A DNA stretch of 64,000 bases from an uncultured Gammaproteobacteria bacterium. Its GTDB lineage: Bacteria > Patescibacteriota > Patescibacteriia > UBA1558 > S5-K13. Location: NCBI GenBank assembly GCA_964424195.1, contig CAYRHT010000003.1, forward strand, positions 112,396 through 176,395, in the 5' to 3' direction. The notes under the pieces were generated by a model. It was given only the letters and a program-made list of their open reading frames with translations, was not told the DNA's origin and did not search any database. The position numbers were made by a program, and so were the translations under genes. The stretch's first letter is position 1. Each line of letters opens with the position of its first letter. This document shows, piece by piece, positions 9,856 through 62,590 of this stretch.

Positions 9856-9856
9856 A

Positions 9857-10360: not shown

Positions 10361-10389
10361 TAAGAAGGATAAGGTATTATAATAGATGT

Positions 10390-11529
10390 ATGGATATTTT
10401 ATATATCACTCAGGCTAGAATTCCTACTGAAAAGGCACATGGAGTTAATATTACTTCTATGTGTAAATTTTTTAATAAAGGAAAAAATAATATTAAATTG
10501 ATCATTCCTAGGGTTAAAAATAAAATAAAAGAAGATACTTTTCAATATTATGATATAAAAGATCATTTTGAAATTGTTAGATTACCAGCTATATCTATCT
10601 TTAAACTAGAGAAAATATTAGGAAAGTTAACTTTTTTTACCCAATTATTAAGCTTTTATATTTCAGTATTATTTTATTTACTCTTACAAAAAAGAAGTGA
10701 TAAAGTTCTTTATACTAGAGATTATTTACCATCTTTTATATCTTTATTGGGTTATAAAGTTGTTTATGAATGTCATAGTATTCCCAGGAAAAGAAAGATG
10801 TTTTTTTTAATAACTAAATTATTTAGTAAAGTAATAGTTATTTCTAAGGGATTAAAAGAAGATTTTCTAGAACAAGGTTTTAAGGATAATAAGATATTGA
10901 TAGCGGCAGACGCAGTTAATTTAAATATTTTTATCAAAAGTATTACTAGAGAGGAAGCTAGAAAAAAATTGAACCTTCCTGAAAATAAAGATATTATTTG
11001 TTATTGTGGTAAGTTTAAAACAATGGGAATGGATAAAGGAATTAAAGACATATTGTTATCTCTTACTTTTTTAGAAAAAGAAGTTTTATTTTTAGCAGTT
11101 GGTGGTGATCAAAAAGATATAAACTTTTACCAAAAAATGGCGGATGATTTAAAAGTTAGTAAGTTAGTCAAATTTATCGGACATATTAAACAGAATGAAT
11201 TAGCTGTTTACCAAAAAGCCGCTGATATATTATTAATGCCTTTTCCTAATATAGAACATTATAGTAAGTTTATGTCTCCTATTAAGATGTTTGAGTATAT
11301 GGCTAGTAAAAGACCAATTATTGCTTCTAATCTACCAACTATTAAAGAAGTATTAAATAATGACAATTGCTTATTCTGTGAACCAGATAATCCTCGGGAT
11401 TTAGCAATTAAAATTGAAGAATTGTTGAATAATAAGGAAAGGGGTGATAAATTATCTCAAGTAGCATTTAAAGATGTTCAGAGATATACTTGGGAAAATA
11501 GAGTAAAGATGATTTTAAAATTTATATGA
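10390..11529 (+). CDS. Glycosyltransferase family 4
   Basis: GT-B C-terminal region with FEYMASKRPIIASNLP. Confidence 0.8.
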   Translation: MDILYITQARIPTEKAHGVNITSMCKFFNKGKNNIKLIIPRVKNKIKEDTFQYYDIKDHFEIVRLPAISIFKLEKILGKLTFFTQLLSFYISVLFYLLLQKRSDKVLYTRDYLPSFISLLGYKVVYECHSIPRKRKMFFLITKLFSKVIVISKGLKEDFLEQGFKDNKILIAADAVNLNIFIKSITREEARKKLNLPENKDIICYCGKFKTMGMDKGIKDILLSLTFLEKEVLFLAVGGDQKDINFYQKMADDLKVSKLVKFIGHIKQNELAVYQKAADILLMPFPNIEHYSKFMSPIKMFEYMASKRPIIASNLPTIKEVLNNDNCLFCEPDNPRDLAIKIEELLNNKERGDKLSQVAFKDVQRYTWENRVKMILKFI

Positions 11530-47053: not shown

Positions 47054-47074
47054 ATTTAAAGATAATATTTCTTA

Positions 47075-47098
47075 AAACAACCTTTAAGGTTGTTTTTT
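47075..47098 (+). terminator. Intrinsic terminator after glmS
   Basis: ACAACC / GGTTGT stem plus TTTTTT. Confidence 0.6.
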
Positions 47099-47100
47099 GT

Positions 47101-47129
47101 TTGACATTATTCATAATGTGTGATATATT
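47101..47129 (+). promoter_or_regulatory. Sigma70-type promoter TTGACA-N17-TATATT. Shares 25 nt with the promoter at 49521.
   Basis: TTGACATTATTCATAAT is identical at 47101 and 49521, each directly after a terminator and upstream of a T9SS-CTD gene. Confidence 0.6.
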
Positions 47130-47259
47130 AAGACATCGTTCTTTGAAAATAATCATTACTAATTAGTAATGTATATATAAATTAATAGTTAAAATGAAGT
47201 AAATATAATCGTTAACCAAAAGAAGAAAGACGAGCAAGGAGCTCGCAAAAGGAGAAAAG

Positions 47260-49467
47260 ATGAAAAAGTTAACATTAGTCACACTGTTAGTAGCAATCTT
47301 AATAGTTGCAGGAAATTTGGTAGCACAAGTAAATTTGTATTCTACAAGTGAAACTGTGAATTGTGGACCGGACATTGTCAATCAAATGAACTTATATTTT
47401 GAAATCAGTGGCGGTGATCAAGTAACATCAATAACAATGAAGTATGATGGAATTGATGTTGGTTGGCTTGATTATGATAGATTTTCCAATATAGAAACTG
47501 GTGAAAGAATTAACTGTTCAGTTTTTTCTGATAATATTAATCAAGAAAAGGTGGTAACATTTATAGAACCTCTTACTGGATTTATTGGTATTACATCTAC
47601 AACAACTGTTTTTCTGCATAATACGCCAAGCTTTCATCCTTATATTGAAAGTGCTGAAGACATAGAATCTTCATCTGGAAATGTAAATGGTATTTTTCCT
47701 CTTATTGGAAATAATATTTACATATATGGAAATCTCTTTAACGTAATGGGAGATACTATTCAAAGTGGAATTAATTCTGCTCAAAATGGAGATGTGGTTT
47801 TGGTTCAATCAGATATTTATTATGAAAATCTAACTTTAGTAGATAAGGATATTAGAATTATATCTATGAATGAACTTTTAGGACCTACTTATCCAATTGG
47901 AGAAACTATTATCAATGGTAATAGTTCCGGAAGATGTTTTACTGCTAATTTCAGTAGCTTTGAAATAGCTGGCTTCACTTTTACAGACGGAGTTACTTCT
48001 GATAATGGTGGTGGAATCAACATAGATATGTGTCATAATTCTGTCATAAGAAATTGCTTGATAATAGGTAATCAAACTACTAACGGTTATAATGGTTCGG
48101 GCGTTTATATGAGTTATAGTAATAACGTTACTATTTCAAATGTAGAAATATCGGATAATTCTGCAACTGGCTTTGGTGGTGGAGTTGCCTGTCACAATTC
48201 AAGTGTTGATATAGTTGAAAATTGTCATATAGCAAACAATGAATCTAATGATAACGGTGGTGGATTATATGCATTCAATAGTGAAATTTTTCTTAAAGAT
48301 ACTTTTGTTATGGAGAATCAATCAAATAATTGTGGTGGTGGATTATATACAGAAAGCTCAGAATTAAACATTGATTCATATGTAGAATTCAATAGTAATT
48401 CAACTCAATATCAAGGTGGTGGTATTTATGCTGAATCTTGTACTCTTCAAATTTATGGATCTAATTTCTTTGAAAATGAAGCCGAAACTGCCGGAGCATT
48501 AGCTTTAATCTATTCTCCTTCTGAAATAGAAGGATGTTTCTTTGTTGGAAATCAAGCTAATAGTTTAGCTGGTGGAGTATTTAACTCACATGGCAATATT
48601 TCTATAAAACATTGTGAGTTTAGTAATAATATTGCTACTTGGACAAGCGGCGGAGCATTCTACAATCAATATAGTGAATTTACTATTGAAAAATGTTTAT
48701 TTCATGATAATCGTTCTGGTATTATGACCGGTGGTGGTAGTGCTATTTTCTTAAATGAAAGTGAAAATGGAAAAATCATTGGTACAACTATAGCACATAA
48801 TTATCCAGTTGAAGGTCAAGATTTTTGCCCCGTGATTTATAGTCACGACTCTGAAGAAACCTTATTACTGAATTCTGTTATTTATCAAAACATTGGACCT
48901 TCGGTTGCTGGAAATTCTCCTGTTCGATGTGTTCATTCAGATTTGTATGGAAATAATGGTGATTGGACTGAAAATACTATTGATGATCAAGGTAATATTT
49001 CTTTAAACCCTCAATTCACTCCTTATTACTTGCCCGAACAAAATTCACCTTGCATTGATACTGGAATTGACTATTTTGAATGGAATGGAGAAGTTTATGA
49101 AGTGCCGGAATATAACGATTTTGCTCCAGACATGGGATTTAGAGAAACCAATTATCCTGTATTTGTAAATCCTGAAGGAATTCCTGAGGTCAAAACAAAT
49201 CTTATCGGAAATTACCCAAATCCATTTAATCCGTCAACTGCTATCAATTTCAACGTCGCTAAACAAAGTGATGTTGAACTATCAATCTACAATGTCAAAG
49301 GTCAGAAAGTTACAACTTTAGTGAATGAGCAAATTAATGCTGGTTCACATACAAGAATATGGAACGGAACTGATCAAAACAACAATGCTGTATCTTCCGG
49401 AGTTTATTTCTACAAATTAACTTCTGATAGATACAGTGAAATCAAAAAGATGATCTTAGCTAAATAA
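47260..49467 (+). CDS. Secreted right-handed parallel beta-helix repeat protein with T9SS (Por) C-terminal sorting domain
   Basis: Signal peptide. Many NxGGG(I/L)Y-type beta-helix repeats. C-terminal NYPNPFNPSTAINFNV...IYNVKGQKV...SGVYFYKLT...KKMILAK matches the TIGR04183-type CTD. Confidence 0.85.
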   Translation: MKKLTLVTLLVAILIVAGNLVAQVNLYSTSETVNCGPDIVNQMNLYFEISGGDQVTSITMKYDGIDVGWLDYDRFSNIETGERINCSVFSDNINQEKVVTFIEPLTGFIGITSTTTVFLHNTPSFHPYIESAEDIESSSGNVNGIFPLIGNNIYIYGNLFNVMGDTIQSGINSAQNGDVVLVQSDIYYENLTLVDKDIRIISMNELLGPTYPIGETIINGNSSGRCFTANFSSFEIAGFTFTDGVTSDNGGGINIDMCHNSVIRNCLIIGNQTTNGYNGSGVYMSYSNNVTISNVEISDNSATGFGGGVACHNSSVDIVENCHIANNESNDNGGGLYAFNSEIFLKDTFVMENQSNNCGGGLYTESSELNIDSYVEFNSNSTQYQGGGIYAESCTLQIYGSNFFENEAETAGALALIYSPSEIEGCFFVGNQANSLAGGVFNSHGNISIKHCEFSNNIATWTSGGAFYNQYSEFTIEKCLFHDNRSGIMTGGGSAIFLNESENGKIIGTTIAHNYPVEGQDFCPVIYSHDSEETLLLNSVIYQNIGPSVAGNSPVRCVHSDLYGNNGDWTENTIDDQGNISLNPQFTPYYLPEQNSPCIDTGIDYFEWNGEVYEVPEYNDFAPDMGFRETNYPVFVNPEGIPEVKTNLIGNYPNPFNPSTAINFNVAKQSDVELSIYNVKGQKVTTLVNEQINAGSHTRIWNGTDQNNNAVSSGVYFYKLTSDRYSEIKKMILAK

Positions 49468-49487
49468 CTTAGTTGAGATTGCAATAT

Positions 49488-49518
49488 ACGAGCTTAGAGA
49501 AATCTGAGCTCGTTTTTT
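49488..49518 (+). terminator. Intrinsic terminator
   Basis: ACGAGCT / AGCTCGT stem, 12-nt loop, TTTTTT. Confidence 0.6.
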
Positions 49519-49520
49519 AT

Positions 49521-49549
49521 TTGACATTATTCATAATTCATGATAATTT
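49521..49549 (+). promoter_or_regulatory. Sigma70-type promoter TTGACA-N17-TAATTT (duplicate of the one at 47101)
   Basis: See 47101 promoter. Confidence 0.55.
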
Positions 49550-49593
49550 ATTATGATACTTTTTAAAAAAATAAAAGAAAAATAGGAGGAAAA

Positions 49594-50394
49594 ATGAAAA
49601 AAATCATGAGTTTAATTGTGGTAATCTTAGTGATTACTGGAAGTTTGTTTGGTATTGCTAGTTTTGAGATTATGGAACAAGATATTGTTCCCCTTATTCA
49701 AAACGGTGTAGATGGACCAATAGTAAGTATTGAAATTAATGGTCTTGTTCAAAGTAGATGCAGTATTTTTTCAGTTGATACTTCGGAAACTTCACCTAGT
49801 CATACAGCTACAATCTATTTTGAAAACTTACGATGGGTAGAAGAGTCGACAGGTTGGGAATCAAGCACAATTGTTAATTCTTACGGAGAAATAATTGTCC
49901 CGGCTTGGATGTATTGTTTTAATAATGAAACAAAAATCTATACGCTGTGGGGGAAGATTTTTCTGGAATGTCTTGAGAATGAAGGTCAATTTGAAATTGC
50001 TTGGCCTTCAGCAGACTTTTTATGGATTTCAGACAATACTGAGATTGAAGACAATTTTCCACAGTACAAAAGTATTATGATTGTAGAAAATCTTGAGGCA
50101 GACGAAGTCTTACCGATTGTTCAATTTAATTTGAAAAATTATCCAAATCCTTTTAACCCCTCTACAACAATTTCTTTTACACTAACTCAAGAAAGTCCGG
50201 TGAAATTAGAAATCTACAATTCTAAAGGACAGAGAGTAAAAACTCTAATAAATCAGCAGATTGATGCTGGTTTACATGAAATAATTTGGTATGGAAAAGA
50301 CGAAAATGACAATCCTATAGCTTCTGGGATGTACTTTTACAAGCTCACTGTTAATAGTTTCACAAGAATCAAAAAAACAATGTTATTAAAGTAA
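49594..50394 (+). CDS. Secreted protein with T9SS (Por) C-terminal sorting domain
   Basis: Signal peptide. C-terminal NYPNPFNPSTTISFTL...IYNSKGQRV...SGMYFYKLT...KKTMLLK. Confidence 0.8.
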   Translation: MKKIMSLIVVILVITGSLFGIASFEIMEQDIVPLIQNGVDGPIVSIEINGLVQSRCSIFSVDTSETSPSHTATIYFENLRWVEESTGWESSTIVNSYGEIIVPAWMYCFNNETKIYTLWGKIFLECLENEGQFEIAWPSADFLWISDNTEIEDNFPQYKSIMIVENLEADEVLPIVQFNLKNYPNPFNPSTTISFTLTQESPVKLEIYNSKGQRVKTLINQQIDAGLHEIIWYGKDENDNPIASGMYFYKLTVNSFTRIKKTMLLK

Positions 50395-50545
50395 TTTAAT
50401 TAATACTTTACAATCTATAAGCCTGGAAAATTCTAGGCTTATTTTTTTATTCCTTAAATCATTAAAAAACTTGACAATATTTCATTTATGGTCTACTATA
50501 AAGAGTCAATTTAGAGTAATTTTGAATTGATATCAAAAACTAGAA

Positions 50546-52375
50546 ATGACTAAAAAAACAATCAAAAAAGTATTAATAATTATTATTACTATATTCATAA
50601 TTTATGGAATTTGGTTGGCTTTAGGACCTTTAAAACACATTTATGCTGCTAGTAAAAATATCCCTCCAGCAATTGAGAAAATAGAAGAATATATTGATAA
50701 TAATGATTATATCTCTGCTAATATCTATATTAATCAAACTAGAGATAATATTGTAGTTATTAGAGATAACTTAAAATATGTTGGGTTTATAAAACTTATT
50801 CCTTTTTTAGGAGATAAATTAAGTAAAACTGAAGTAATTTTAGATGATGCTCAATTAATTTGTCTTAATTCTAGTAAGATTATTGAATCTTTAGCTGAAT
50901 TAGGTGAAGTTAATAAATATACTTTGATATCTAATCTAAGTAATTATCCAAATGAAATTCAAGATTTAATTAAGAATTTAGATTCTTTAATGAATAATGT
51001 AGATTTATTATCCAATATATTTAAAATCAGTGATAATAAAGCAATTGATAGTGTTTCTTTTGTATCAAAGTTATTAAAAATAATTCAACCCCTAGAAAAT
51101 CATTTGTTTGAAATTCTAGCTTATGGTGAAGAACAAAGATATCTATTATTATTTCAAAATAATACTGAGCTTCGACCAACTGGTGGATTCATTGGAACTT
51201 ATGGAATCTTAGAAATTAAAGATGGTCAAATGAAGAATCTATTCATTGATGATATCTATCATTTAGATTCTAAAGTAATTGGAGAATTAAATAATGAAGT
51301 TCCAGCTCCTTTAAAAAAGTATTTAAAAATGAAAGAATGGTATTTACGAGATTGTAATTGGAATCCTAATTTTCCTTCTACAGCTCAAGATTGTTTAAAT
51401 CTTTATGAAATAGAAAGTGAAGATGAAAAAGAAATAAATGGAATTATAACTCTAACTCCTAATGTAATTGCTGATCTATTTGAAATAATTGGAGCTCAAG
51501 AAGTAGGCGGAGTATTATTTGAAAGTGATAATTTTATCAGCGATTTACAAAAAGCTGTTGAACTTTATTACCAAGAAAGAGGAGCTACTCACTGGGAAAG
51601 AAAAGATATTATATCTGCTTTAGCTAATGTAATTATAGATCGTTTTCAATATTTAGAATTAGGTGATTATCAAGAAGTTCTTGATCTTTTAATTAAGAGT
51701 TTAGAAAGAAAAGATATTTTGGTATATAGTAAGAATCAGAATCTCCAAGAAACTTTAAGTGAAGTAAATTGGAGCGGAGAAATATTAAATGTAGACCATG
51801 ATTATTTAATGGTAGTGGATAGTAATTTAGCTAGTTTTAAATCAGATCAATATTTAGATAGAAGTGTTCATTATCAATTAGAAAAGAATACTGAAGATGA
51901 ATTAATTGTTAATTTAAAATTAGAGTATCAGCATAATGGTGATTTCTCTTGGAACTCAACTAGATACCGAACTTATACTAGAATCTTAGTTCCTCAAGGC
52001 TCAGAATTAATTGAAGTCAAAGGAGCTATGGATAATGATCGGAGTGATAAAAAGGGTGAAGTAGACACATATAATGAACATGGTAAAACAATATTTGGTA
52101 CTTTCTTAGCTATTGAACCTGGACAAAGTAATTCTTTAAGTTTTAAATACAAATTACCTGATTATTTAAAGAAACAAATTGAAGAAAAAAAGTATAATCT
52201 ATATCTTCAAAAACAAGCTGGTGTGAGTAATATTCAATATTTAGTAGATATTAACTTAAAAGAAGATTTTAGTAATTATCAGGTAAATATAGATGAGATT
52301 GTTGAAAATAATCTATCTAGTTTTAAAGGGAAATTTAAATTAAATAAAGATAAATTAATAAATATAAATTGGTAA
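50546..52375 (+). CDS. DUF4012-like membrane-anchored protein
   Basis: N-terminal TM helix. Conserved LLLFQNNTELRPTGGFIGTYG motif as in DUF4012 proteins of cell-wall polymer loci. Promoter TTGACA-N17-TACTAT at 50473-50501. Confidence 0.5.
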   Translation: MTKKTIKKVLIIIITIFIIYGIWLALGPLKHIYAASKNIPPAIEKIEEYIDNNDYISANIYINQTRDNIVVIRDNLKYVGFIKLIPFLGDKLSKTEVILDDAQLICLNSSKIIESLAELGEVNKYTLISNLSNYPNEIQDLIKNLDSLMNNVDLLSNIFKISDNKAIDSVSFVSKLLKIIQPLENHLFEILAYGEEQRYLLLFQNNTELRPTGGFIGTYGILEIKDGQMKNLFIDDIYHLDSKVIGELNNEVPAPLKKYLKMKEWYLRDCNWNPNFPSTAQDCLNLYEIESEDEKEINGIITLTPNVIADLFEIIGAQEVGGVLFESDNFISDLQKAVELYYQERGATHWERKDIISALANVIIDRFQYLELGDYQEVLDLLIKSLERKDILVYSKNQNLQETLSEVNWSGEILNVDHDYLMVVDSNLASFKSDQYLDRSVHYQLEKNTEDELIVNLKLEYQHNGDFSWNSTRYRTYTRILVPQGSELIEVKGAMDNDRSDKKGEVDTYNEHGKTIFGTFLAIEPGQSNSLSFKYKLPDYLKKQIEEKKYNLYLQKQAGVSNIQYLVDINLKEDFSNYQVNIDEIVENNLSSFKGKFKLNKDKLININW

Positions 52376-52379
52376 ATAT

Positions 52380-53297
52380 ATGATTGATAATGGAATGACG
52401 AAAACTGAAAATATAATTGATGATTTAGTAAAGAATAAATTATTTGTTTTGCTAACTATTTTTCTATTCGTTTTAATAGCTAGTATTCTAACTAGTTTTC
52501 AAAAGAAAGAATACTCATCAACAGCTAAGATTCTAATTATTCAAGAGCAAGAACATAAGATGGATGCCTATTTAGCATCTAAATCTTCTGAATCTCTAGC
52601 TAAAAACCTAAAGAAAGCTATCTCTACATCTTCTTTTAGGAATAAAGTTCTGGAAGATCTATCTGATGTTGAAATAGGTGTTTTTCAAAATGAGAAAAAG
52701 AGAAGAAAAGAATGGTTAAAAATGGTTAACATTAAAACTATTCCTAATACTTCTATTCTAGAAATTACTAGCTATCATAAAGTAGCTTTTCAATCAGAAA
52801 AGATTTTGAATAAAGTTTTAAATACCTTATTAGAAAATCATCAACTCTATCATGGTGGAGATACTGGAGTAAGATTAGAAATTATTGATAATCCTTTAAC
52901 ATCTCTACGACCTACTAGACCAAATTGGGCTTTAAACTTATCCCTTAGTTTTGTTTTAGGAATATTCTTCGTTATTACTCTCTTAGTTCTATTCCCAAAC
53001 AAGATTAATTTACTTGATGCTAAATTAAGAAAAAAGCCAACTCAGAAGAATAAGGATATTAATGAGAAGAAAGGTAATTTTAAAGTATTTGATTATTTAG
53101 AAGGTTCTTCAAATAAACAAACTGATTTACCAGATGATTTATTTGAAGAGGATGAAGAATCAGAAGAAGAAAGCTTTTTTGAAAAAGAAGAAGGTCTTTT
53201 TAATTCTCAAGGAGAAGAGGATAATATTATTGAAGTTGAGAATAATAAAGAAATTAAAGAGATTATTGGTAATAATCATTATTTAAAAAGAAAATAA
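52380..53297 (+). CDS. Polysaccharide co-polymerase / chain-length determinant (Wzz/CpsC-like) with acidic tail
   Basis: Two TM helices flank a periplasmic-type domain. N-terminal KKEYSSTAKILI resembles the Wzz motif. D/E-rich C-terminus. Confidence 0.55.
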   Translation: MIDNGMTKTENIIDDLVKNKLFVLLTIFLFVLIASILTSFQKKEYSSTAKILIIQEQEHKMDAYLASKSSESLAKNLKKAISTSSFRNKVLEDLSDVEIGVFQNEKKRRKEWLKMVNIKTIPNTSILEITSYHKVAFQSEKILNKVLNTLLENHQLYHGGDTGVRLEIIDNPLTSLRPTRPNWALNLSLSFVLGIFFVITLLVLFPNKINLLDAKLRKKPTQKNKDINEKKGNFKVFDYLEGSSNKQTDLPDDLFEEDEESEEESFFEKEEGLFNSQGEEDNIIEVENNKEIKEIIGNNHYLKRK

Positions 53298-53417
53298 TTT
53301 AGATTTAAGCTCTAAATCTTAGGCTTTAAGTATTTTACTTATAGTCTACAATTTATAGCTTATGGCTATACGAGTATAAATGCACATTGATAATTAAATA
53401 AAAAAATAAATCGAGCT

Positions 53418-55133
53418 ATGCTCGAAGGAGGAATTGTGAAAAAGTTAGTATTAGTTATGGTAATCTTGTTATTTACTCTGATTATTCAGGCAGAATGGAT
53501 ACGAGAAGACACAGTGTTGGGATCAAAACTTCAGAACAAAGATTTACAAGGAGATTATTTCAAAGTAATGAAGTCTGATGAAAATGTAGTTGGTTTAAAA
53601 AAAAGCTTAGAATTAAAATTTGGTCCTATAACTGCTGATTCTCTAATGTTTGTATTTGAACACGGAGAAGTTGAAGCTGTTAGATTTTCGGAAAAGAAAA
53701 ATTCTATCACACCTAATATGCGTTTGGGATTGTTTATTTTTGGAGGAGATTCTTCTCCAAAAGTTAAGATTAGCCGTTCAGCTGCTCTTTATATGGAAAA
53801 TATGGAACATGTCGATGAGCCTGGAGTTAAGTTCTATGCTTCTTGTTTAAGATGGAGCTGGATAGTAACACTAGAGGCTTTAGAAGAGATTTATGAAACT
53901 GATCCAGTGATTAAGAAAAGACTAACAAGATGGGACTTGGAAGAAAATGGAGAAATTAAACTTACTGTTAATTATTTTCAGGATGGTTTAGATGGTAAAG
54001 ATCTGTGTAACAATGTTTATTCTGGTTTTGATCAAGTTATACCTCATCTAGTACCTTATCCGGTCCCCGGACCCTCTCCTGATCCAGAAATTATTTACAA
54101 AGATCGTATTATCTATATTGAAATCCCACCAAAAGAAAAGAAATGTCCAGGAGCAAGAACTTTTTGGTCCGGTTATACTTCGTTTAGTAAAACATGGATG
54201 AGAAAGGGAATTGAAGATGGTTCCAATGAAAGCATTCTTTTTGATGCCAAATGGGACGATAAACAATCAGATGATGAAATCTTAAATCTCAAGATAGCCA
54301 GAGGCTATTATGAAAATCGTTGGTTCTTAGAAGCAGAAGGTCAATTAATTGATCGAGTGTTTAATGGAAATTTCCATAGTGGATTTGAAACTGTCTTTAA
54401 GAAAAGATTACATTGGCACTTTGGAGCTTGTAGTCAACAAAGAAGATTTAGTTTCTATCTAGCTGGTGAGAATCAAGGCAATACAACTTATTACTATCAA
54501 AAGAAACCATGGGTTTCTTATTATGTTGGTTTCTTTAGTCAAATTGACTTCTGGTTTGGAGTAAGAAAATCTCAATTCCAAAAACAATTGGAAGCAATGA
54601 ACATATTTTTGCCTATTAGAAAAAAGTATCAAAGCTTTATTTCTTTATATGCAGAAGTAAATAGTGAACCCTGGAAAGTTTGGGAAGAAGCTCAATTAAC
54701 TAAATGGCTTGTTAAATTCGAAGGTAAAATCAAACCAAAACCTCTGTATTCTTATTTTAATATAGAGTACAAGGAGTTCTCTAGAGAGGAGATCATTTTG
54801 GAAGGTAGTATTCTTGATAAACCTAAAGAAAAAAGTCTCTATACTCATCTCAGACTCGGTGTTAGTTTAAGAGACAATCTAAGCATCTTTGGACTAGGAC
54901 AGTATATCAATTATGACATTTCTAAATCTAATGATATTACTGATTCTAACTTTCAAATTGCTGATGGTGGTATTGGTGTTGAATGGGAAATTCCTGGTTT
55001 TGAAATAACAGGTATCGTTACCTATCGAGAAACTTGTGAAAGATTGGATATCGGGAAACCTTGGGGTAAAGAACTTCATAACGAAGGTATTAACTTTCTG
55101 ATTAAAGTCGTTAAATTGGAGGTGAGATTATGA
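53418..55133 (+). CDS. Secreted protein with a beta-barrel-like C-terminal half. Start may be the GTG at 53436.
   Basis: Signal peptide KKLVLVMVILLFTLIIQA. AAGGAGG RBS at 53425-53431 favours the GTG at 53436. The C-terminal region has alternating hydrophobic beta-strand patterns. Confidence 0.5.
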   Translation: MLEGGIVKKLVLVMVILLFTLIIQAEWIREDTVLGSKLQNKDLQGDYFKVMKSDENVVGLKKSLELKFGPITADSLMFVFEHGEVEAVRFSEKKNSITPNMRLGLFIFGGDSSPKVKISRSAALYMENMEHVDEPGVKFYASCLRWSWIVTLEALEEIYETDPVIKKRLTRWDLEENGEIKLTVNYFQDGLDGKDLCNNVYSGFDQVIPHLVPYPVPGPSPDPEIIYKDRIIYIEIPPKEKKCPGARTFWSGYTSFSKTWMRKGIEDGSNESILFDAKWDDKQSDDEILNLKIARGYYENRWFLEAEGQLIDRVFNGNFHSGFETVFKKRLHWHFGACSQQRRFSFYLAGENQGNTTYYYQKKPWVSYYVGFFSQIDFWFGVRKSQFQKQLEAMNIFLPIRKKYQSFISLYAEVNSEPWKVWEEAQLTKWLVKFEGKIKPKPLYSYFNIEYKEFSREEIILEGSILDKPKEKSLYTHLRLGVSLRDNLSIFGLGQYINYDISKSNDITDSNFQIADGGIGVEWEIPGFEITGIVTYRETCERLDIGKPWGKELHNEGINFLIKVVKLEVRL

Positions 55134-55918
55134 AAAGATACTTATTTCTTATCCTCCTAATCTTCACTTTATTAGCTTGCGAGGATGGAAATGTCTTTCG
55201 GATTAGGCTCAATTCATTTATTTTAAGGATAAAAGAGTTACCTGATAAGAATATAATTCTGCGGGGTAGTTTAGTCAATGGTTATGACTTACCTTGGGAT
55301 TATGAACAAATCGTATCTGGAACAGAGGTAGAAATACCTTTAGATTCCATTTTGACCGATGCTGGAGAATTTTACTTAGAAATGATTACTATCGAAGAAA
55401 CAACTCCAGATTCTCTTTACAGTATACCAATCAGTGCTTTAGTTGGAATTGAAAATACTATAATGGGAAGTAATTATGTTATTGATGGTTTGCAAACCGC
55501 TAATGAAATGTTCTATTTCCCAGACGGAGATTCAATTTCTATTCCTAGGAATTATCAGTGGAAAATTTCCTTTGATCCGGAAGATAGTCCGCCAATTGAT
55601 TGGCAAAGCACAGAAATAATCTCAGTCATAATAAAGATTCCAGATTCTCCAGATTATTTTGCAGAGAGATATTGGATTGTTTATCACACTGGAAGTGCTT
55701 TTAAAAAGTCTATTTTTAAATCCAGAGAAATAAATCTCTGGATTCCTGAAACAAGCTTGTATGCACTTCAAATATTTGATCAAGATTGGAAAAAAGTTAA
55801 AAGTATTGAGGTAAGAACAACTCTTAATACTCTAATCCTAGATAAACCTCGTCTTATTGATGGAAATTATGTTTTCATTTTTGAATTAGATGATGGCTAT
55901 CTAACAAAAATAAACTAA
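55130..55918 (+). CDS. Lipoprotein
   Basis: Signal peptide with LLAC lipobox. ATGA overlap with the upstream gene. Confidence 0.6.
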   Translation: MKRYLFLILLIFTLLACEDGNVFRIRLNSFILRIKELPDKNIILRGSLVNGYDLPWDYEQIVSGTEVEIPLDSILTDAGEFYLEMITIEETTPDSLYSIPISALVGIENTIMGSNYVIDGLQTANEMFYFPDGDSISIPRNYQWKISFDPEDSPPIDWQSTEIISVIIKIPDSPDYFAERYWIVYHTGSAFKKSIFKSREINLWIPETSLYALQIFDQDWKKVKSIEVRTTLNTLILDKPRLIDGNYVFIFELDDGYLTKIN

Positions 55919-55931
55919 AAAAGGAGGAAAA

Positions 55932-56507
55932 ATGAAAAACATTTTTCTATTTATCGTAGCATTATCTATTATGGTAATGTTGATGTCTGGATGCAGCTCA
56001 AATACTTTGCATCCGGCAGCTAATTATGCAGAGCAAGTTGGAAAACCGGTTGATAAAATCGTAGAAGGAAGATTTAAAGTTTATCCTATTTACGAATTGA
56101 ATGATAAAGGTGAAAATATTCTAACAGAATCTTCATTAGTAGAATATTACATTCCTCATGGTCCTGCATTTCATGCTTTCATTGATAATGAAGAATTTCC
56201 GGAAAAAAGTTTGGAAGAGATAGAATATATTCTTTTAAAAGGAAAAACTTATTTTGTACCGGAAAAATCGTCTGATGGAATTTTAGCAAAGTATAATCAA
56301 AAAAATCGTAAGATTATAGCTGAAGTACCAAATAAATTGGTCGAGGGAAATTTTAGAGCCGTTTATTCTAAGAAAAATGGTGAAGATGGAACTGATGCTG
56401 TATTTACCCATGTCTGGGATTCTCCTGCTGCTTATATCAAAGGAGATATTTACAAGTTCTTGGCAGAATGGAAAAACAATCAATATATTCCCAGAGGCAC
56501 GCCTTAA
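55932..56507 (+). CDS. Lipoprotein
   Basis: Signal peptide with LMSGC lipobox. GGAGG RBS. Confidence 0.6.
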   Translation: MKNIFLFIVALSIMVMLMSGCSSNTLHPAANYAEQVGKPVDKIVEGRFKVYPIYELNDKGENILTESSLVEYYIPHGPAFHAFIDNEEFPEKSLEEIEYILLKGKTYFVPEKSSDGILAKYNQKNRKIIAEVPNKLVEGNFRAVYSKKNGEDGTDAVFTHVWDSPAAYIKGDIYKFLAEWKNNQYIPRGTP

Positions 56508-56536
56508 AAAGTGCCTTATGGAATAAGAAAATCAAA

Positions 56537-56564
56537 AAGGGATTCTTAATTGAATCCCTTTTTT
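56537..56564. terminator. Bidirectional intrinsic terminator between convergent genes
   Basis: AAGGGATTC / GAATCCCTT 9-bp stem. An A-run upstream and a T-run downstream. Confidence 0.7.
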
Positions 56565-56578
56565 CATATCTAAAAGTG

Positions 56579-57922
56579 TTATTCAGCTAGTAAATAGGCG
56601 ATATATGTCCATAGAACCCATTGTAAGCCCGTAGAGAGCATAATATTATCTACTAAGCTTATTAAATAGATAATTATAATTCCAATAAAAGTAATTAAGT
56701 ACCTTTTATCCTTTGATTTAATAAACTTTCTGAGAATATTCTTAAGAGTTTGATAGATGAGATTGAGGTAAAGTAATAGACCAAGGAATCCTAATTCAAT
56801 AACTATTTTTAAATAGTCATTATGAGCATAAAGACTTTCTGTAACATCAGATACTTGTTTATTCCTTAAAAAACGATAAGTATCTAATCCAAAACCAATA
56901 ACTGGAGCTTGATAGACATATTCTGTCATTTCCGTCCAAGTTTTAATTCTCCATTCCCAAGAAGAAAGTAAATTAGAAGAAGTAGTAACTCTTCTTACTA
57001 AAGAAACAGTATTCCAATCAAAATATTTTAAGGCCGTATAATTATTTAAGATTAAAAAGATAAAGATCAAGCTAATTCCTAATATTGAATATTTAATTAA
57101 TCTCTTTCGTTCATAGATTATTAGAATAATTGCTATAAATAATATTAAACCTATCCAAGCACTTCTAGTTAAAGTAAATAATATCAAAGCCATTAGGATC
57201 ATTAAATACAAAAAGGTCTTCTTAGAATGCTTTTTAGAATTAAAATAAAGACCAGTAAAGATAAAGAAAATAAAGAATAAATTAAAAGCAAAACTATTAG
57301 GATGAAAGTATGTTCCATTGATTCTAAAAAAACCTTCAGCACCATGAAATCCCTTCTGAGTTATAACTTGATAAATACCTAAAATACAAGGAAGTAAATA
57401 GGATATAAAAAGAGCTTTGATAAAAAGGTCTTTCTTTCCTTTATTCTCTTGAAAATATATAAAAGCAATAATAAAGATGAAGAAAGTACTGATTAACCTC
57501 ATTAGAGTTTTAATACTACTAGCTTGATCAACAGAATAGATAATACTAATTGCTGAAAATGCTATAAATAATAACCAAGGGATTATTAAAGGAATTTTCT
57601 TCCAATCAATTCTTTTCCTAATTATAGTTATAATTCCAAAAAAGATAACTAAAACTCCTAATAAAGAAGAAAAATTTAAGGTAATAACATTAAAGAAATT
57701 TAAAAAAATACTTTCAGTATAAAGGTCTGTACTGTTTCTAATAATAATTAATATTAAAATAGTATAATAGGGAATTATTAGAAAGAGAGGAATAATCATT
57801 GTAATTAATAATACTCCAATAGCTGAGCTGGGAGTTAAATTATTAAAAACAATAAATAAAAGAGCTAAACTAAATAAAACTAGCTCAGAAATAAGAAATA
57901 ACTTTTTTTGTTTTGAAATCAT
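56579..57922 (-). CDS. O-antigen ligase/polymerase family membrane protein (Wzy_C / WaaL-like)
   Basis: About 12 TM helices. LTRSAWIGLILFIAI matches the O-antigen ligase domain motif. Confidence 0.7.
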   Translation of the reverse strand: MISKQKKLFLISELVLFSLALLFIVFNNLTPSSAIGVLLITMIIPLFLIIPYYTILILIIIRNSTDLYTESIFLNFFNVITLNFSSLLGVLVIFFGIITIIRKRIDWKKIPLIIPWLLFIAFSAISIIYSVDQASSIKTLMRLISTFFIFIIAFIYFQENKGKKDLFIKALFISYLLPCILGIYQVITQKGFHGAEGFFRINGTYFHPNSFAFNLFFIFFIFTGLYFNSKKHSKKTFLYLMILMALILFTLTRSAWIGLILFIAIILIIYERKRLIKYSILGISLIFIFLILNNYTALKYFDWNTVSLVRRVTTSSNLLSSWEWRIKTWTEMTEYVYQAPVIGFGLDTYRFLRNKQVSDVTESLYAHNDYLKIVIELGFLGLLLYLNLIYQTLKNILRKFIKSKDKRYLITFIGIIIIYLISLVDNIMLSTGLQWVLWTYIAYLLAE

Positions 57923-58031: not shown

Positions 58032-59249
58032 ATGAATATATTACAAATTAATAAATTCTATAATTTTCAAGGTGGTGCTGATAAGCATTTTATAGAATTA
58101 TCTCAACTTTTAGAAGCACATGGTCATCAGGTGCATCTTTTTAACACTCAAGATCAGAATACTCCGGATAATAACTATAGAAAGTATTGGCCTCCATACT
58201 TTGATTTATCAAAAAGTTCTCAGAATAAATTAATTAATATATTTAAAATTTTCTATAACTGGCAGGCTGTTCAAGGGTTAAAAAGATTATTAAAAGATCA
58301 TCGAATTGATATAGCTCATATTCATAATATCTATCATCACCTTAGTCCCGCTATTCTTAAAGTATTGAAAAAAAATAATATTCCAGTAGTGATGACAGCT
58401 CATGATTACAAATTGATTTGTCCAAATTATAATCTATTTAACTTTTCTGAGAATAAAATATGTGAAAAATGTAAGGCTAATAACTATTTCCAATGTACTA
58501 AAAATAAATGTATTCAGAATTCTAGATTTAAAAGCCTCTTAGGAACATTAGAAATGTATTGGCAAAGATTATTTTTCCCTTATCATAAATTAGTAAATAA
58601 ATTCATAGCTCCTAGTCAGTTTATGAAAGATAAGTTATTAGAGTTTAACTTCCCTAATTCAAATATAGAAGTGTTATACAACTTCAATAATCAAGAAATG
58701 AATTTTAGTACTTCAGATACTAAAGATTATTTTCTTTACTTCGGCAGACTATCTACTGAAAAGGGATTAAAAGAATTTATTCAAACTCTTTCTAAACTAA
58801 AAAAAGACTTCCTTTTCTACATCGCTGGTCAAGGACCAGCAGAGAAAGATTTAAAGAAGTTAGTAAAAGAATTATCTTTAGAAAACAAAGTTAAATTCTT
58901 GGGATATTTTAGTTCAGATAGAAAGCAAGAATTAGAAGAAATCATTCAACAAGCTAAATTCATTGTAGTTCCTAGTATTTGGTATGAAAATTGCAGTTTA
59001 AGTATTGTAGAATCTCTAGCTAGAGGAAAATTTGTTTTAGCTTCTAATCTAGGTGGAAATTCAGAGTTAATTAATAAAGAAAATGGTTGTTTGTATAATT
59101 TAAATAATGAGGCGGATTTACTTGACAAAATTAGTATTTTAATAGATAATAAAGGATCAAATTTAGAAATTAAAATCAAGACTCTGGAGAAGTTTGATTC
59201 AGAAAAATATTATCAAAAATTAATTAAAATATATCAAGATCTAGTTTAA
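58032..59249 (+). CDS. Glycosyltransferase family 4
   Basis: N-terminal FQGGADKH, C-terminal ENCSLSIVESLARGKFVLASNLGG. Extended -10 TGTTATAAT at 57985-57993. Confidence 0.85.
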   Translation: MNILQINKFYNFQGGADKHFIELSQLLEAHGHQVHLFNTQDQNTPDNNYRKYWPPYFDLSKSSQNKLINIFKIFYNWQAVQGLKRLLKDHRIDIAHIHNIYHHLSPAILKVLKKNNIPVVMTAHDYKLICPNYNLFNFSENKICEKCKANNYFQCTKNKCIQNSRFKSLLGTLEMYWQRLFFPYHKLVNKFIAPSQFMKDKLLEFNFPNSNIEVLYNFNNQEMNFSTSDTKDYFLYFGRLSTEKGLKEFIQTLSKLKKDFLFYIAGQGPAEKDLKKLVKELSLENKVKFLGYFSSDRKQELEEIIQQAKFIVVPSIWYENCSLSIVESLARGKFVLASNLGGNSELINKENGCLYNLNNEADLLDKISILIDNKGSNLEIKIKTLEKFDSEKYYQKLIKIYQDLV

Positions 59250-59253
59250 TTCT

Positions 59254-60354
59254 ATGAAAATAGCATATATTGGACAGAAAGGAATGCCAATGACTCAAGG
59301 TGGTGTTGAAGCTCATGTTGAGAACTTGGCTTTAGAAATGGCTCAAAAAGGTCATGATGTTTTTGTTTACACTAGAGCTAATTATACTAATCCAAAATTA
59401 AAAGAATATCAAGGAGTTCAATTAATCTCTTTGCCAAGTATTAAAACCAAACATCTTGATGCTATTAGTCATACCTTTTTTGCTTCTCTCCATGCTTTAT
59501 TCCAAGGCTATGATATTATTCACTATCATGCTGTTGGTCCATCATTATTTTCCTTTATACCTAGACTATTCTCTAGAGCTAAAATCATTGGAACTTTTCA
59601 TTGTATAGATAGGTTTCATCAGAAATGGAATAAATTTGCTCAAATGATTTTAAAACTAGGAGAATGGGCTATTTGTAAATTCCCACATACTACCATATCT
59701 GTTAGTCCTCATATTCAAAAATATTGTTTAGAGAAGTATAATCAAGAAACACTATTTATTCCTAATGGTTTTAAGATCAAGCAAAATTCTAATGATGATA
59801 TTTTAAAAACATATAATTTAACTCCTCAGAAATACTTCTTAGCTGTCTCTCGAATTATTAAACATAAAGGTTTACATTATTTAATAGAAGCTTTTCAGAA
59901 GTTAAATAATCCAGAGTATAAATTAGTGATTGTCGGAGATACTTTCCATGATCAAAAATACAAAGAATATTTAAAAGAAATTTCTCAGAATCAAGAGAAT
60001 ATAGTTTTTACAGGGATTCAAAGCGGAGAATCATTAAATCAATTATTTACTAAAGCTTTTACATTTGTTTTACCATCAGAGGATGAAGGGCTTTCTATAA
60101 CCCTTTTAGAGGCTGTAGCTCATCAATTACCAGTAATTGCTAGTAATATTGAAGCTAATGCTCATTTAACAGAGAAAGGGTTGGTATATAGCTTTAAGAA
60201 CAAGAATGTTGATGATTTAAAAGATAAAATGCAATATGTTTTAGATAATCTAGAAGATAACCAAAGAATGCTTAGTAAAGCATATGATTATGTTAAAGAT
60301 AATTTTTCTTGGAATCATATAGCTAATCAAATAGATCAAGTTTATAATAATTAA
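59254..60354 (+). CDS. Glycosyltransferase family 4
   Basis: N-terminal TQGGVEAHV, C-terminal EDEGLSITLLEAVAHQLPVIASN. Confidence 0.85.
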   Translation: MKIAYIGQKGMPMTQGGVEAHVENLALEMAQKGHDVFVYTRANYTNPKLKEYQGVQLISLPSIKTKHLDAISHTFFASLHALFQGYDIIHYHAVGPSLFSFIPRLFSRAKIIGTFHCIDRFHQKWNKFAQMILKLGEWAICKFPHTTISVSPHIQKYCLEKYNQETLFIPNGFKIKQNSNDDILKTYNLTPQKYFLAVSRIIKHKGLHYLIEAFQKLNNPEYKLVIVGDTFHDQKYKEYLKEISQNQENIVFTGIQSGESLNQLFTKAFTFVLPSEDEGLSITLLEAVAHQLPVIASNIEANAHLTEKGLVYSFKNKNVDDLKDKMQYVLDNLEDNQRMLSKAYDYVKDNFSWNHIANQIDQVYNN

Positions 60355-60374: not shown

Positions 60375-60794
60375 ATGAAAATTATATTGATAGTTTTTTT
60401 GATTTTAATAAGTCTAATCCTAAATACTGAAAATACGGAAGATAAGGAAGCTCTTCGTAAAGCAATGTTAGGAGATCATAGAATTATTTATGATCAAGAA
60501 GAAGCTCCAAAACTGTCTAAGTCAAAATCTGAAGTCCAAGAATTAATTGAACAAAAAGAAAAACAGATTCTTAAGAAAGAAAAAGAAATTGAAATCTTAA
60601 AATCTGAAATTGCTCAATTAAAAAAACAAGATCAAACTTCTGATTCTGATTCGTCAGAAGGAAATTATTACCCAGAGATAAGTAATCATGAAAATGAAGA
60701 AAGTACTCTTTCTCAAGAATTAAAACTTACTAGAGAAAGAAGAATCAATGCTGAAAATGAATTAAAGGAACTTTATGAATTATTAAACAAGTAG
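60375..60794 (+). CDS. Small secreted coiled-coil protein
   Basis: Signal peptide or TM helix followed by heptad-like K/E-rich sequence. GGAGG RBS. Confidence 0.45.
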   Translation: MKIILIVFLILISLILNTENTEDKEALRKAMLGDHRIIYDQEEAPKLSKSKSEVQELIEQKEKQILKKEKEIEILKSEIAQLKKQDQTSDSDSSEGNYYPEISNHENEESTLSQELKLTRERRINAENELKELYELLNK

Positions 60795-60901: not shown

Positions 60902-62590
60902 ATGTCTAAAACTAACAAAACTAGATTCACCTTTTTATTCATTATTGTCTTAACAGCTTTGACTGTGATGACAGTATATCCTAAGCTACCAGATAATTTT
61001 CCGGGTAGTTCTTTTTTTAGTAAATTTACTCCTCATTTAGGACTTGATTTACAAGGGGGAGCTCATTTAGTATATGAAGCTAACTTAGAAGCTATTGATA
61101 GCTTAGATAAAGCTTCATCTTTAAATGGAGCTAGAGATGTTATTGAAAAAAGAGTGAATACCTTTGGAGTGGCTGAACCAGTAGTTCAAATCAGTGGTAA
61201 TAACAGAATTATCATTGAATTAGCTGGAGTCTTTGATATTAAAGAAGCAATCTCTCTAATTGGAGAAACTCCACTTTTAGAATTTAAAGAACCTGGTAAT
61301 CAAGAATTGAGCGAAGAAGGAAAAAATGAAATAATAAATATAAATTTAGAAAAAGAAGTGTTAGCTCAAGGAATTTTAGAAAGAGTAAAAAATGGAGAAG
61401 ATTTTGCTAGTTTAGCTTCAGAGTTTAGTGAAGACCCAGGGTCTAAAAATAATGCTGGAATTATTGATTTTGTAAACAGAGAAGTATTGGCTCCAGAATA
61501 TGCTAATGCTATCTTTGATACTTTAAAAGATGGAGAAGTTACTAATGAATTAGTAGAAACTCAATATGGTTATCATATTATTAAAAAACTTGAAGAAAGA
61601 ATGTCTGATGATCCTATTGATCCTGCAACAGCTACAACACCCGTTAGAGAAGTTAAATCTCAACATATTCTTTTTATGATTCAACCTTTAGAGGGTCAAT
61701 TTGTTTGGCAGAATACTGAATTAGGTGGAAAACAATTAAAAGTATCTAATGTTCTTTTTGATAATACTACTGGTAATGTTCAAATTGGTTTAGATTTTGA
61801 TAGTGAAGGTAAAGAAATGTTTGCTGAAATTACTGCTCGAAATATTGGTCAACCAGTTGGTATCTTTCTAGACGGTGATTTAGTAACCATGCCAACAGTT
61901 AATGAAGAGATTAGAGATGGTAGCGCTGTTATCACTGGTAGTTTTAATTTAAATGAAGCTAAAGAAATATCTCAAAGATTAAATGCTGGTGCTTTACCAG
62001 TTCCAGTTAATTTAATTTCTCAACAAACTGTTGGAGCAACTCTTGGTCAAATATCTTTAGAGAAATCATTATTCGCTGGTTTGATTGGTTTAATTATCCT
62101 AGCTCTATTCATGATTATCTATTATCGTTTACCAGGATTATTAGCAGTTTTAGCTTTAAGTATTTATGCTTCAGTATCTTTAGCAGTTTTTGAATTAATT
62201 CCAGTTACTTTAACATTGTCTGGTATTGCTGGTTTCATATTGTCAGTGGGAATGGCTGTTGATGCTAATGTTTTAATATTTGAAAGATTTAAAGAAGAGT
62301 TAAGAGATGGAAAGATACTATCAATTGCTATTGAAGAAGGATTTCAAAGAGCTTGGACATCAATTAGAGATTCAAATGTTTCTTCTCTAATCACTTGCTT
62401 TATCCTGTATGCTTTTGGAGCTAGTATGGTTAAAGGTTTTGCTTTAACTCTAGGTATTGGTATTTTTGTCTCTATGTTTAGTGCTGTAGTTATCACTAGA
62501 AACTTCTTAAGAATAATGACTAACCCTAAGATGGATAAATATCTTTGGTTATTTGGTGTAAATAAAAAAAATAATTTAGAAAATAAATAA
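60902..62590 (+). CDS. secD: Protein translocase subunit SecD with an embedded parvulin-type PPIase-like segment
   Basis: SecD N-terminus (TM helix, LGLDLQGGAHLVYEA), P1 head and C-terminal 6-TM domain. The inserted segment (~61330-61710) contains FASLASEFSEDPGS...GYHIIK, the parvulin hallmark. Confidence 0.9.
   Translation: MSKTNKTRFTFLFIIVLTALTVMTVYPKLPDNFPGSSFFSKFTPHLGLDLQGGAHLVYEANLEAIDSLDKASSLNGARDVIEKRVNTFGVAEPVVQISGNNRIIIELAGVFDIKEAISLIGETPLLEFKEPGNQELSEEGKNEIININLEKEVLAQGILERVKNGEDFASLASEFSEDPGSKNNAGIIDFVNREVLAPEYANAIFDTLKDGEVTNELVETQYGYHIIKKLEERMSDDPIDPATATTPVREVKSQHILFMIQPLEGQFVWQNTELGGKQLKVSNVLFDNTTGNVQIGLDFDSEGKEMFAEITARNIGQPVGIFLDGDLVTMPTVNEEIRDGSAVITGSFNLNEAKEISQRLNAGALPVPVNLISQQTVGATLGQISLEKSLFAGLIGLIILALFMIIYYRLPGLLAVLALSIYASVSLAVFELIPVTLTLSGIAGFILSVGMAVDANVLIFERFKEELRDGKILSIAIEEGFQRAWTSIRDSNVSSLITCFILYAFGASMVKGFALTLGIGIFVSMFSAVVITRNFLRIMTNPKMDKYLWLFGVNKKNNLENK

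Follow-up and report, generated by a model that had tools for sequence, protein, structure and literature searches.

The subject of this analysis is a glycan-related module in a stretch of 64,000 nucleotides (nt) of DNA, here called the window. From position 50546 onward, genes for a DUF4012 protein and a Wzz-like polysaccharide co-polymerase (PCP) are followed by three genes for exported proteins (p571, lip262, and lip191) and by a convergent Wzy_C-family gene. A preliminary description of this DNA had called the block a polysaccharide or envelope module, which the Pfam matches and the conserved neighborhood described below bear out, and had suggested that p571 and the two lipoproteins form an unusual polysaccharide export route. 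On balance, we favor reading the module as a cell surface glycan assembly locus of a Komeilibacteria-like bacterium of the candidate phyla radiation (CPR), in which a replaceable cassette encodes extracytoplasmic proteins that handle the glycan or belong to the surface, rather than an outer membrane pore.

Bacteria of the CPR, or Patescibacteria, are mostly uncultured episymbionts, and little is understood of their envelopes or of the surfaces with which they contact hosts. The locus would give surface glycan assembly in one CPR clade a concrete frame of conserved genes (DUF4012, Wzz, Wzy_C, and GT4), and its slot for whole sets of exported proteins shows the pattern expected for surface structures that are exposed to a host or to phages. 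It also links DUF4012, which is widespread in monoderms and the CPR, to Wzz beyond Bifidobacterium.

The genes and sites of the module are listed by strand and by position in the window, the numbering used for all open reading frames (ORFs) below. Every ORF named in the preliminary description was recovered at its position.

50471..50499, plus strand: promoter-like site ahead of the DUF4012 gene (consensus scan, pattern match only)
50546..52375, plus strand: DUF4012 protein, 609 amino acids (aa), PF13196; conserved core gene
52380..53297, plus strand: Wzz/PCP-like co-polymerase, 305 aa, PF02706; conserved core gene
53382..53435, plus strand: conserved cassette leader, consisting of the GCACATTGA motif (53382-53390), an A-rich tract, and AAGGAGG (8-locus alignment)
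53436..55133, plus strand: p571, 565 aa from a GTG start; first gene of the variable cassette
55130..55918, plus strand: lip262, predicted lipoprotein with lipobox LLAC; orphan sequence
55932..56507, plus strand: lip191, predicted lipoprotein with lipobox MSGC; AAGGAGG Shine-Dalgarno sequence
56534..56563, no strand assigned: hairpin of a bidirectional terminator (12-bp stem) separating the convergent lip191 and Wzy_C genes, in the variable block
56579..57922, minus strand: Wzy_C-family polytopic membrane protein, 447 aa, PF04932; conserved core gene
58032..59249, plus strand: GT4a glycosyltransferase (Pfam); conserved core gene, 41 to 60% identical in relatives
59254..60354, plus strand: GT4b glycosyltransferase (Pfam); conserved core gene, 60 to 75% identical in relatives

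Conserved glycan genes around a variable cassette

About 50 ORFs of the window were scanned for domains, and Pfam matches over the cutoff were found for the DUF4012, Wzz, and Wzy_C proteins and for both GT4s. The DUF4012 protein matched PF13196 over residues 196 to 334 (85.4 bits versus a cutoff of 28; E = 7e-24) and has a single N-terminal hydrophobic segment, a membrane anchor, ahead of a large extracytoplasmic domain. The Wzz-like protein matched PF02706 (32 bits versus 25.5) and has the two transmembrane (TM) segments of a PCP, at residues 15 to 43 and 181 to 214. It scored under the cutoff with the GNVR domain PF13807 (21.3 versus 27.7 bits) and far under it with the CpsC family model TIGR01006 of NCBIfam (39.9 versus 296 bits). 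It does not belong to the PCP-2a or PCP-2b type, having no fused or adjacent bacterial tyrosine kinase (BY-kinase) domain, and no P-loop kinase was present in the scanned ORFs. These ORFs also held no Wza/Poly_export or BY-kinase domain, in agreement with the earlier remark that a canonical Wza or Wzc kinase is missing. Neither the DUF4012 nor the Wzz protein matched any PDB sequence. The Wzy_C protein has at least 10 hydrophobic segments and scored 73.6 bits against PF04932 (cutoff, 31.7); its match to the RfaL model of NCBIfam (E = 1e-9) fell under the cutoff of that model. It is a candidate glycan polymerase, ligase, or O-oligosaccharyltransferase type of enzyme.

Relatives were found with the conserved DUF4012 gene as anchor and profile, and the loci came from GTDB species genomes and metagenome contigs. 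The order DUF4012, Wzz, a cassette of three or four genes for exported proteins, and a convergent Wzy_C gene recurs in 10 related contigs, so the gene neighborhood, whose conservation had been proposed as a check on the module, is kept. This frame is complete in L002, L005, L006, L018, L021, L022, L059, L060, and L061, while the L007 contig carries DUF4012, Wzz, and exported proteins and ends before Wzy_C. A GT4 gene comes next after Wzy_C wherever the relative's contig reaches far enough, and the site of the core module is fixed between glmS and secDF. The flanking genes are 42 to 85% identical to those of relatives at the protein level: DUF4012 is 42 to 72% identical across the 10 syntenic loci, and Wzy_C is 47 to 62% identical. 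With L005 and L059, which have the same order, identity is 83 to 85% for GlmS and 66 to 68% for Wzz; in L060 and L061, where DUF4012 is 57% identical, the same frame extends through to SecD. The same core genes also co-occur, rearranged, in L096, L097, and L106, around an exported GHL15 protein.

The part of the module between Wzz and Wzy_C behaves quite differently. When the window was compared by blastn with L059, L005, L060, and L002, nucleotide identity was 65 to 84% over glmS, DUF4012-Wzz (up to about position 53410), and Wzy_C-GT4 (from 56582), and no DNA similarity to these four loci was found between those two positions. The edges are sharp, and similarity restarts just after the terminator hairpin. 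In the per-gene comparison, p571 was detectable only against L002 (26%), and lip262 and lip191 were undetectable. The window has a GC content of 28%, and GC at third codon positions (GC3) is 0.22 to 0.24 in the cassette versus 0.12 to 0.19 in the flanks.

What fills the slot differs among relatives. Six of them (L005, L006, L018, L021, L022, and L059) have a signal peptide protein of 515 to 550 aa, a lipoprotein of 342 to 376 aa, and one or two secreted proteins of 142 to 181 aa. L060 and L061 have three unrelated exported proteins, the first of which combines CBM_4_9 (E = 7e-9) with Por_Secre_tail, and L007 has a signal peptide protein and three lipoproteins, one with a GH114 domain. Together with the exported GHL15 protein of L096, these CBM and GH114 proteins indicate that carbohydrate-active exported proteins occupy the equivalent position in relatives. 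A signal peptide or lipobox was predicted in every cassette protein.

Whatever the cassette type, its leader (GCACATTGA, A tract, GGAGG, and start codon) is kept in all eight aligned loci. The GCACATTGA motif and the A-rich tract lie 25 to 45 nt upstream of the first cassette gene and also precede unrelated cassettes. The leader probably acts as a promoter or regulatory site for what may be called an expression slot.

The cassette might instead be a horizontally acquired island that sits in a permissive intergenic site and has no functional link to the glycan genes. A GC3 above that of the flanks and the lack of DNA similarity to relatives would both suit such an origin, as would a second window-specific insertion just upstream (47260-50394), which encodes proteins with tails of the type IX secretion system (T9SS). 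We nevertheless regard this explanation as unlikely, since in all 10 related loci the slot is occupied by three or four co-oriented genes for exported proteins behind the same leader. No integrase, transposase, or repeats were seen at the cassette edges, and the distant homologues of the large protein that seven relatives keep indicate long residence. A phage or defense origin of the cassette is likewise unsupported, with no match in PHROGs.

The cassette proteins and their possible roles

The first cassette protein, p571, begins with a predicted Sec signal peptide. Its N-terminal domain (about 170 aa) carries a conserved C-x-N motif and is followed by a Pro-rich linker and by a C-terminal domain of about 300 aa, predicted to be all beta, that ends ...GINFLIKVVKLEVRL. 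We agree with the earlier preference for GTG 53436 over ATG 53418 as its start codon. The GTG lies 4 nt after AAGGAGG and corresponds in the alignment to the ATG of all homologues, whose N termini (MKK/MKR... followed by a hydrophobic run) match this start. The ATG at 53418 is spurious, because it is created by an 18-nt hairpin insert (53411-53425) that is unique to the window.

Close relatives of p571 are few. Word-indexed searches with the single sequence and with 2- and 7-sequence profiles had as their sole match a near-identical entry, P0001, and a genome scan with the p571 profile gave no match. An exhaustive phmmer search of 1.8 billion representatives returned one homologue, P0002 (550 aa, 28% identity, E = 2e-25), whose contig has the order GlmS, DUF4012, Wzz, the 550-aa protein, a 345-aa lipoprotein, a 157-aa secreted protein, convergent Wzy_C, and GT4. 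A BLAST network and a 7-sequence alignment (A3) nevertheless placed the large first-gene proteins in one family, at about 14 to 26% identity to the window protein, and L059 holds an eighth member; in all, seven relatives carry distant homologues, together with a lipoprotein and a small secreted protein. The members share the signal peptide, the C-x-N N-terminal domain, the Pro-rich linker, and the all-beta C-terminal domain. No match to p571 was found in Pfam, NCBIfam, or PHROGs, and none to the seven family members in Pfam at E <= 1, the outer membrane polysaccharide export (OPX) families included; the A3 profile gave only a spurious signal peptide match among PDB sequences. Judged by these searches, the p571 family is undescribed and is seen in one CPR clade only, at 9 loci.

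Within-population hypervariability of the cassette was suspected when P0001 mapped to one contig and Wzz to at least 24, and this idea was rejected. The whole region is 100% identical in L140 to L144 (at least five contigs, from several samples), and P0001 differs from the window by one residue.

Both lipoproteins have the lipoboxes reported earlier, LLAC and MSGC: by sequence pattern, lip262 reads ...FTLLAC|EDG and lip191 reads ...MLMSGC|SSN. The ATGA overlap between p571 and lip262 was confirmed in the DNA, and lip262 is predicted to be translationally coupled to p571, with its Shine-Dalgarno sequence, GGAGGTGA, lying within the p571 tail. Neither lipoprotein had a match in Pfam, NCBIfam (E <= 0.1), or PHROGs. 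When the three cassette families were compared by hhalign with lip262 and lip191 and with the cassette proteins of L007, L060, L096, and L106, only signal peptides were aligned, apart from a short motif in lip191 that is taken up below.

These observations suggest the following scheme. Lipid-linked repeat units would be made elsewhere, for example by the locus at 1 to 20 kb of the window, which encodes a Bac_transf initiating enzyme, GT4s, methyltransferases, CDP-alcohol phosphatidyltransferases, and a Wzx-like flippase. At the outer surface of the cytoplasmic membrane, the Wzy_C protein would polymerize or ligate the units, the kinase-less Wzz protein would set chain length, and DUF4012 would assist Wzz as an extracytoplasmic partner, in the manner of the DUF4012-wzz pair in exopolysaccharide (EPS) loci of Bifidobacterium. 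The cassette (53436-56578; p571, lip262, and lip191), driven by the conserved promoter and Shine-Dalgarno leader, would supply extracytoplasmic and membrane-tethered proteins that bind, trim, or display a strain-specific glycan or form an associated surface layer. Binding, trimming, or display, varying together with a strain-specific glycan, is favored because the equivalent slots of relatives hold carbohydrate-binding and glycoside hydrolase proteins. Whole cassettes would be exchanged by recombination, like the variable center of a capsule or O-antigen locus.

Possible, but less likely, is that the cassette of a CPR cell living as an episymbiont encodes surface antigens, adhesins, or S-layer-like proteins that vary by strain, and that these lie in a glycan locus as targets of the glycan rather than its handlers, perhaps as acceptors glycosylated by a Wzy_C-family O-oligosaccharyltransferase. 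The Wzy_C family does include protein O-oligosaccharyltransferases (PglL, PilO, and WsaB), and the Pro-rich linker of p571 contains Ser and is conserved in position across the family. Extreme divergence with sharp edges beside conserved flanks would be in keeping with antigens, as would the predicted export or lipid anchoring of all cassette products and the strong Shine-Dalgarno sequence and conserved leader that the cassette has of its own. Against this, Pfam and family scans found no S-layer, adhesin, or pilin domains, the CBM, GH114, and GHL15 proteins in the slot of relatives point to the binding or cutting of glycans and not to acceptors, and a Wzz partner suggests polymerization over en bloc transfer to protein.

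Probable host lineage, envelope type, and the suggested export pore

All 54 loci that the DUF4012 profile retrieved from GTDB species genomes lie in Patescibacteria/CPR metagenome-assembled genomes (MAGs) or under placeholder titles ("uncultured Gammaproteobacteria," "bacterium"). The best DUF4012 relative is from "Candidatus Komeilibacteria" CSMAG_211 (L005), with 72% identity for DUF4012 and 83% for GlmS. Patescibacteria have been proposed to lack an outer membrane (PMC12102498). With relatives of this group, the host of the window is probably monoderm, which the preliminary description itself had named as a finding that would speak against its export model. No domain for outer membrane biogenesis was present among the roughly 50 ORFs scanned.

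In that model, p571 is an outer membrane beta-barrel that, with two outer membrane lipoproteins, makes up a noncanonical polysaccharide export channel of the OPX or Gfc/Yjb kind. We consider this very unlikely, even though several features recommend it: the signal peptide, the C-terminal domain of about 300 aa with its all-beta pattern of 8 to 15 conserved alternating amphipathic segments, the translationally coupled lipoprotein that follows, and the position of p571 beside a PCP. The beta-strand pattern that had been described for the C-terminal half is real, and the alternating segments (8 to 15 per member) are conserved across the family alignment; it fits a soluble all-beta domain, such as a beta-sandwich or propeller, as well as a membrane barrel. 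A count of alternating hydrophobicity cannot tell a membrane barrel from a beta-sandwich, and we used it as evidence neither way.

The C terminus speaks on both sides. Four of the eight family members end ...WNIF or ...SINF, an aromatic end that resembles the beta-signal of outer membrane proteins (OMPs). In the window protein, which ends ...INFLIKVVKLEVRL, the equivalent Phe is 11 residues internal, so a strictly C-terminal aromatic beta-signal is not maintained; the last 11 codons of p571 run through the GGAGGTGA Shine-Dalgarno sequence of lip262.

Family searches and synteny also went against a pore. At E <= 0.1 in Pfam and NCBIfam, p571, lip262, and lip191 had no match to the Poly_export (PF02563) and SLBB domains that define OPX proteins, and these three and the seven family members had none to YjbH/GfcD, Caps_synth_GfcC, or YjbF/GfcB. 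The counterparts of the three proteins in relatives likewise matched no Wza/OPX or Gfc/Yjb family there. No OMP family of any kind was matched, nor did the p571 family profile have a credible match among PDB sequences. In L060 and L061, the slot is filled by unrelated, nonbarrel proteins with the same Wzz and Wzy_C kept, so that a pore is not a required part of the module. Given the Patescibacteria lineage, the unmatched families, the internal Phe, and the nonhomologous slot occupants, an OPX- or Gfc/Yjb-like export route is unsupported.

The glycan assembly locus with a replaceable cassette that we prefer also has points that weigh against it. All cassette proteins of the window are without a recognizable domain, and their glycan-handling role is drawn from their position and from the slot occupants of relatives. 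BLAST, phmmer, and hhalign returned no homologue of lip262 from the syntenic loci, and lip191 shares with the small third-gene family of relatives the motif Y-x-[IV]-P-x-G-P-x-F only (hhalign probability, 25%). AlphaFold2 models of p571 were unusable (predicted local distance difference test score of 33.4 for the single sequence and 27.7 for two sequences, with P0002), and the OMP-like ends of half of the family members are as noted above. We know of no experimental test of DUF4012 function. The lineage assignment is based on similarity to MAGs rather than on marker gene phylogeny, and the single-membrane envelope of Komeilibacteria has the status of a proposal. Finally, the 1- to 20-kb locus could feed the Wzy_C/Wzz module, a link whose sole basis is proximity, at 30 kb. 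Inside that locus, a 561-aa protein with at least seven TM segments and no Pfam match (7338-9023) might serve the locus as a polymerase or act as a GT-C-type transferase; in that case, the glycan for which the Wzy_C gene at 56579 is used may be another one.

Comparable systems and neighboring genes

Adjacent DUF4012 and wzz genes form a conserved pair in Bifidobacterium EPS loci (PMC5412050; PMC6744442), such as BL105A_0406 and BL105A_0407 of Bifidobacterium longum 105-A (PMC5412050). The EPS and capsular polysaccharide locus of that strain and the Wzx/Wzy loci of Gram-positive bacteria, with their CpsC/Wzd-type PCP, share several traits with the window: a DUF4012 gene followed by a Wzz gene, a monoderm host (here a proposed one), GT4-type transferases, a Wzy-type polymerase, a flippase, and conserved frame genes that enclose a variable part specific to the strain. 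Unlike in those loci, the Wzz protein here is kinase-less, with no CpsD/Wze-type kinase or phosphatase found in the 64-kb window, and its long acidic tail ends in a conserved HYLKRK. The variable part, moreover, consists of exported proteins and lipoproteins rather than of glycosyltransferases, polymerase, and flippase.

In diderm Proteobacteria, the OPX/Wza systems and those of group 4 capsules (Gfc/Yjb) likewise have a PCP gene beside a large, beta-rich signal peptide protein and small lipoproteins, and the operon layout of Gfc/Yjb, with a barrel (GfcD/YjbH) and partners that include the GfcB/YjbF lipoprotein and GfcC, resembles that of the window. The window proteins differ in having no sequence similarity to these components and no Wzc/Etk kinase, and their host is proposed to be monoderm. 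Whereas OPX/Gfc components are conserved, the cassette proteins of the window are not conserved even among close relatives.

In its variability, the cassette is like the serotype-variable centers of capsule and O-antigen loci, such as the pneumococcal cps locus (dexB-aliA), which also have a fixed site, conserved flanks, and a sharp drop in DNA similarity; atypical GC in the variable part and inferred whole-block replacement are further traits in common. The difference is that the block here encodes exported proteins, not sugar-specific enzymes, and spans 3.1 kb with one conserved leader.

The two proteins encoded upstream of the module, at 47260-49467 and 49594-50394, have T9SS type A sorting domains, with scores of 36.2 and 27.7 bits against PF18962 (cutoff, 27) and of 38.1 and 41.6 bits against TIGR04183 (cutoff, 23). 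They form a window-specific insertion of about 3.5 kb, and 47053-50535 has no similarity in four close relatives. A terminator-like hairpin (50417-50442) closes this upstream inserted island, and the promoter-like site at 50471..50499 comes after it. T9SS-type C-terminal domains (Por_Secre_tail/FlgD_ig), with scores over the cutoff, recur beside DUF4012-Wzz-Wzy_C modules of CPR-like contigs, at L060:12880-13707, L061:6733-7563, and L111:14338-16932. To our knowledge, no T9SS or outer membrane is known in the CPR; these sorting domains recur next to glycan modules in a lineage without a known T9SS.

In Porphyromonas gingivalis, T9SS proteins are anchored through their C-terminal domains to anionic lipopolysaccharide (A-LPS) by the PorU sortase, and A-LPS depends on Wzx, Wzy, Wzz, and WaaL. 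The Por_Secre_tail-type proteins next to Wzz and Wzy_C genes in the window (47260-50394), in L060 and L061, and in L111 recall that arrangement. Unlike in P. gingivalis, no T9SS translocon or PorU was detected here, in scans that included no dedicated test for the T9SS machine, and the lineage presumably has neither an outer membrane nor LPS. It is highly improbable that members of the p571 family are genuine membrane-embedded beta-barrels which, with the lipoproteins, make up a pore or anchoring station within an outer layer of the envelope of a Komeilibacteria-like CPR lineage, exporting the glycan or attaching the T9SS-tail proteins. Were it so, this Patescibacteria clade would have an outer-membrane-like compartment and a minimal, unrecognized secretion or attachment system. 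Current views would be overturned only by the finding that p571 is a membrane barrel.

Two observations concern the conserved genes themselves. The C-terminal tail of the Wzz protein, about 90 aa long, is acidic, of low complexity, and predicted to be cytoplasmic, and it ends in a conserved ..NHYLKRK that is kept in 9 of 10 relatives; it is degenerate in L007 and absent in L022. The tail (encoded at 53090-53297) is of variable low complexity but ends in the short motif ..[IV][IL][GD][NS][ND]HYL[KRN][RKP]K[ED], and the same holds for L002, L005, L006, L018, L021, L059, L060, and L061. The end motif could be a docking site for a cytoplasmic partner. The second observation is that the DUF4012 gene of Magasanikbacteria-like loci (L009, L010, L014, L016, and L020, at about 8300 to 11300) is shorter (about 460 to 485 aa) and directly follows a gene for a 5-TM protein of about 500 aa beginning MLSDYQ(K/R)YRL.EILPG. 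It is not paired with Wzz there, so DUF4012 has a second, different conserved partner.

Downstream of GT4b, a small secreted coiled-coil protein of 139 aa (60375-60794) lies ahead of SecD; it had no homologue in the syntenic loci and marks a third small variable spot of the neighborhood. A rotamase (parvulin) domain of the PpiC type (Pfam Rotamase/Rotamase_3, as annotated in L001) is inserted in the SecD protein (60902-62590), which would be a fusion of a translocon accessory protein with a foldase. At 25860-28349, the window encodes a VirD4/TraG-like type IV coupling protein (T4SS-DNA_transf and TraG-D_C). Type IV secretion systems of a monoderm type have been described as widespread in Patescibacteria, and the protein is consistent with such a system.

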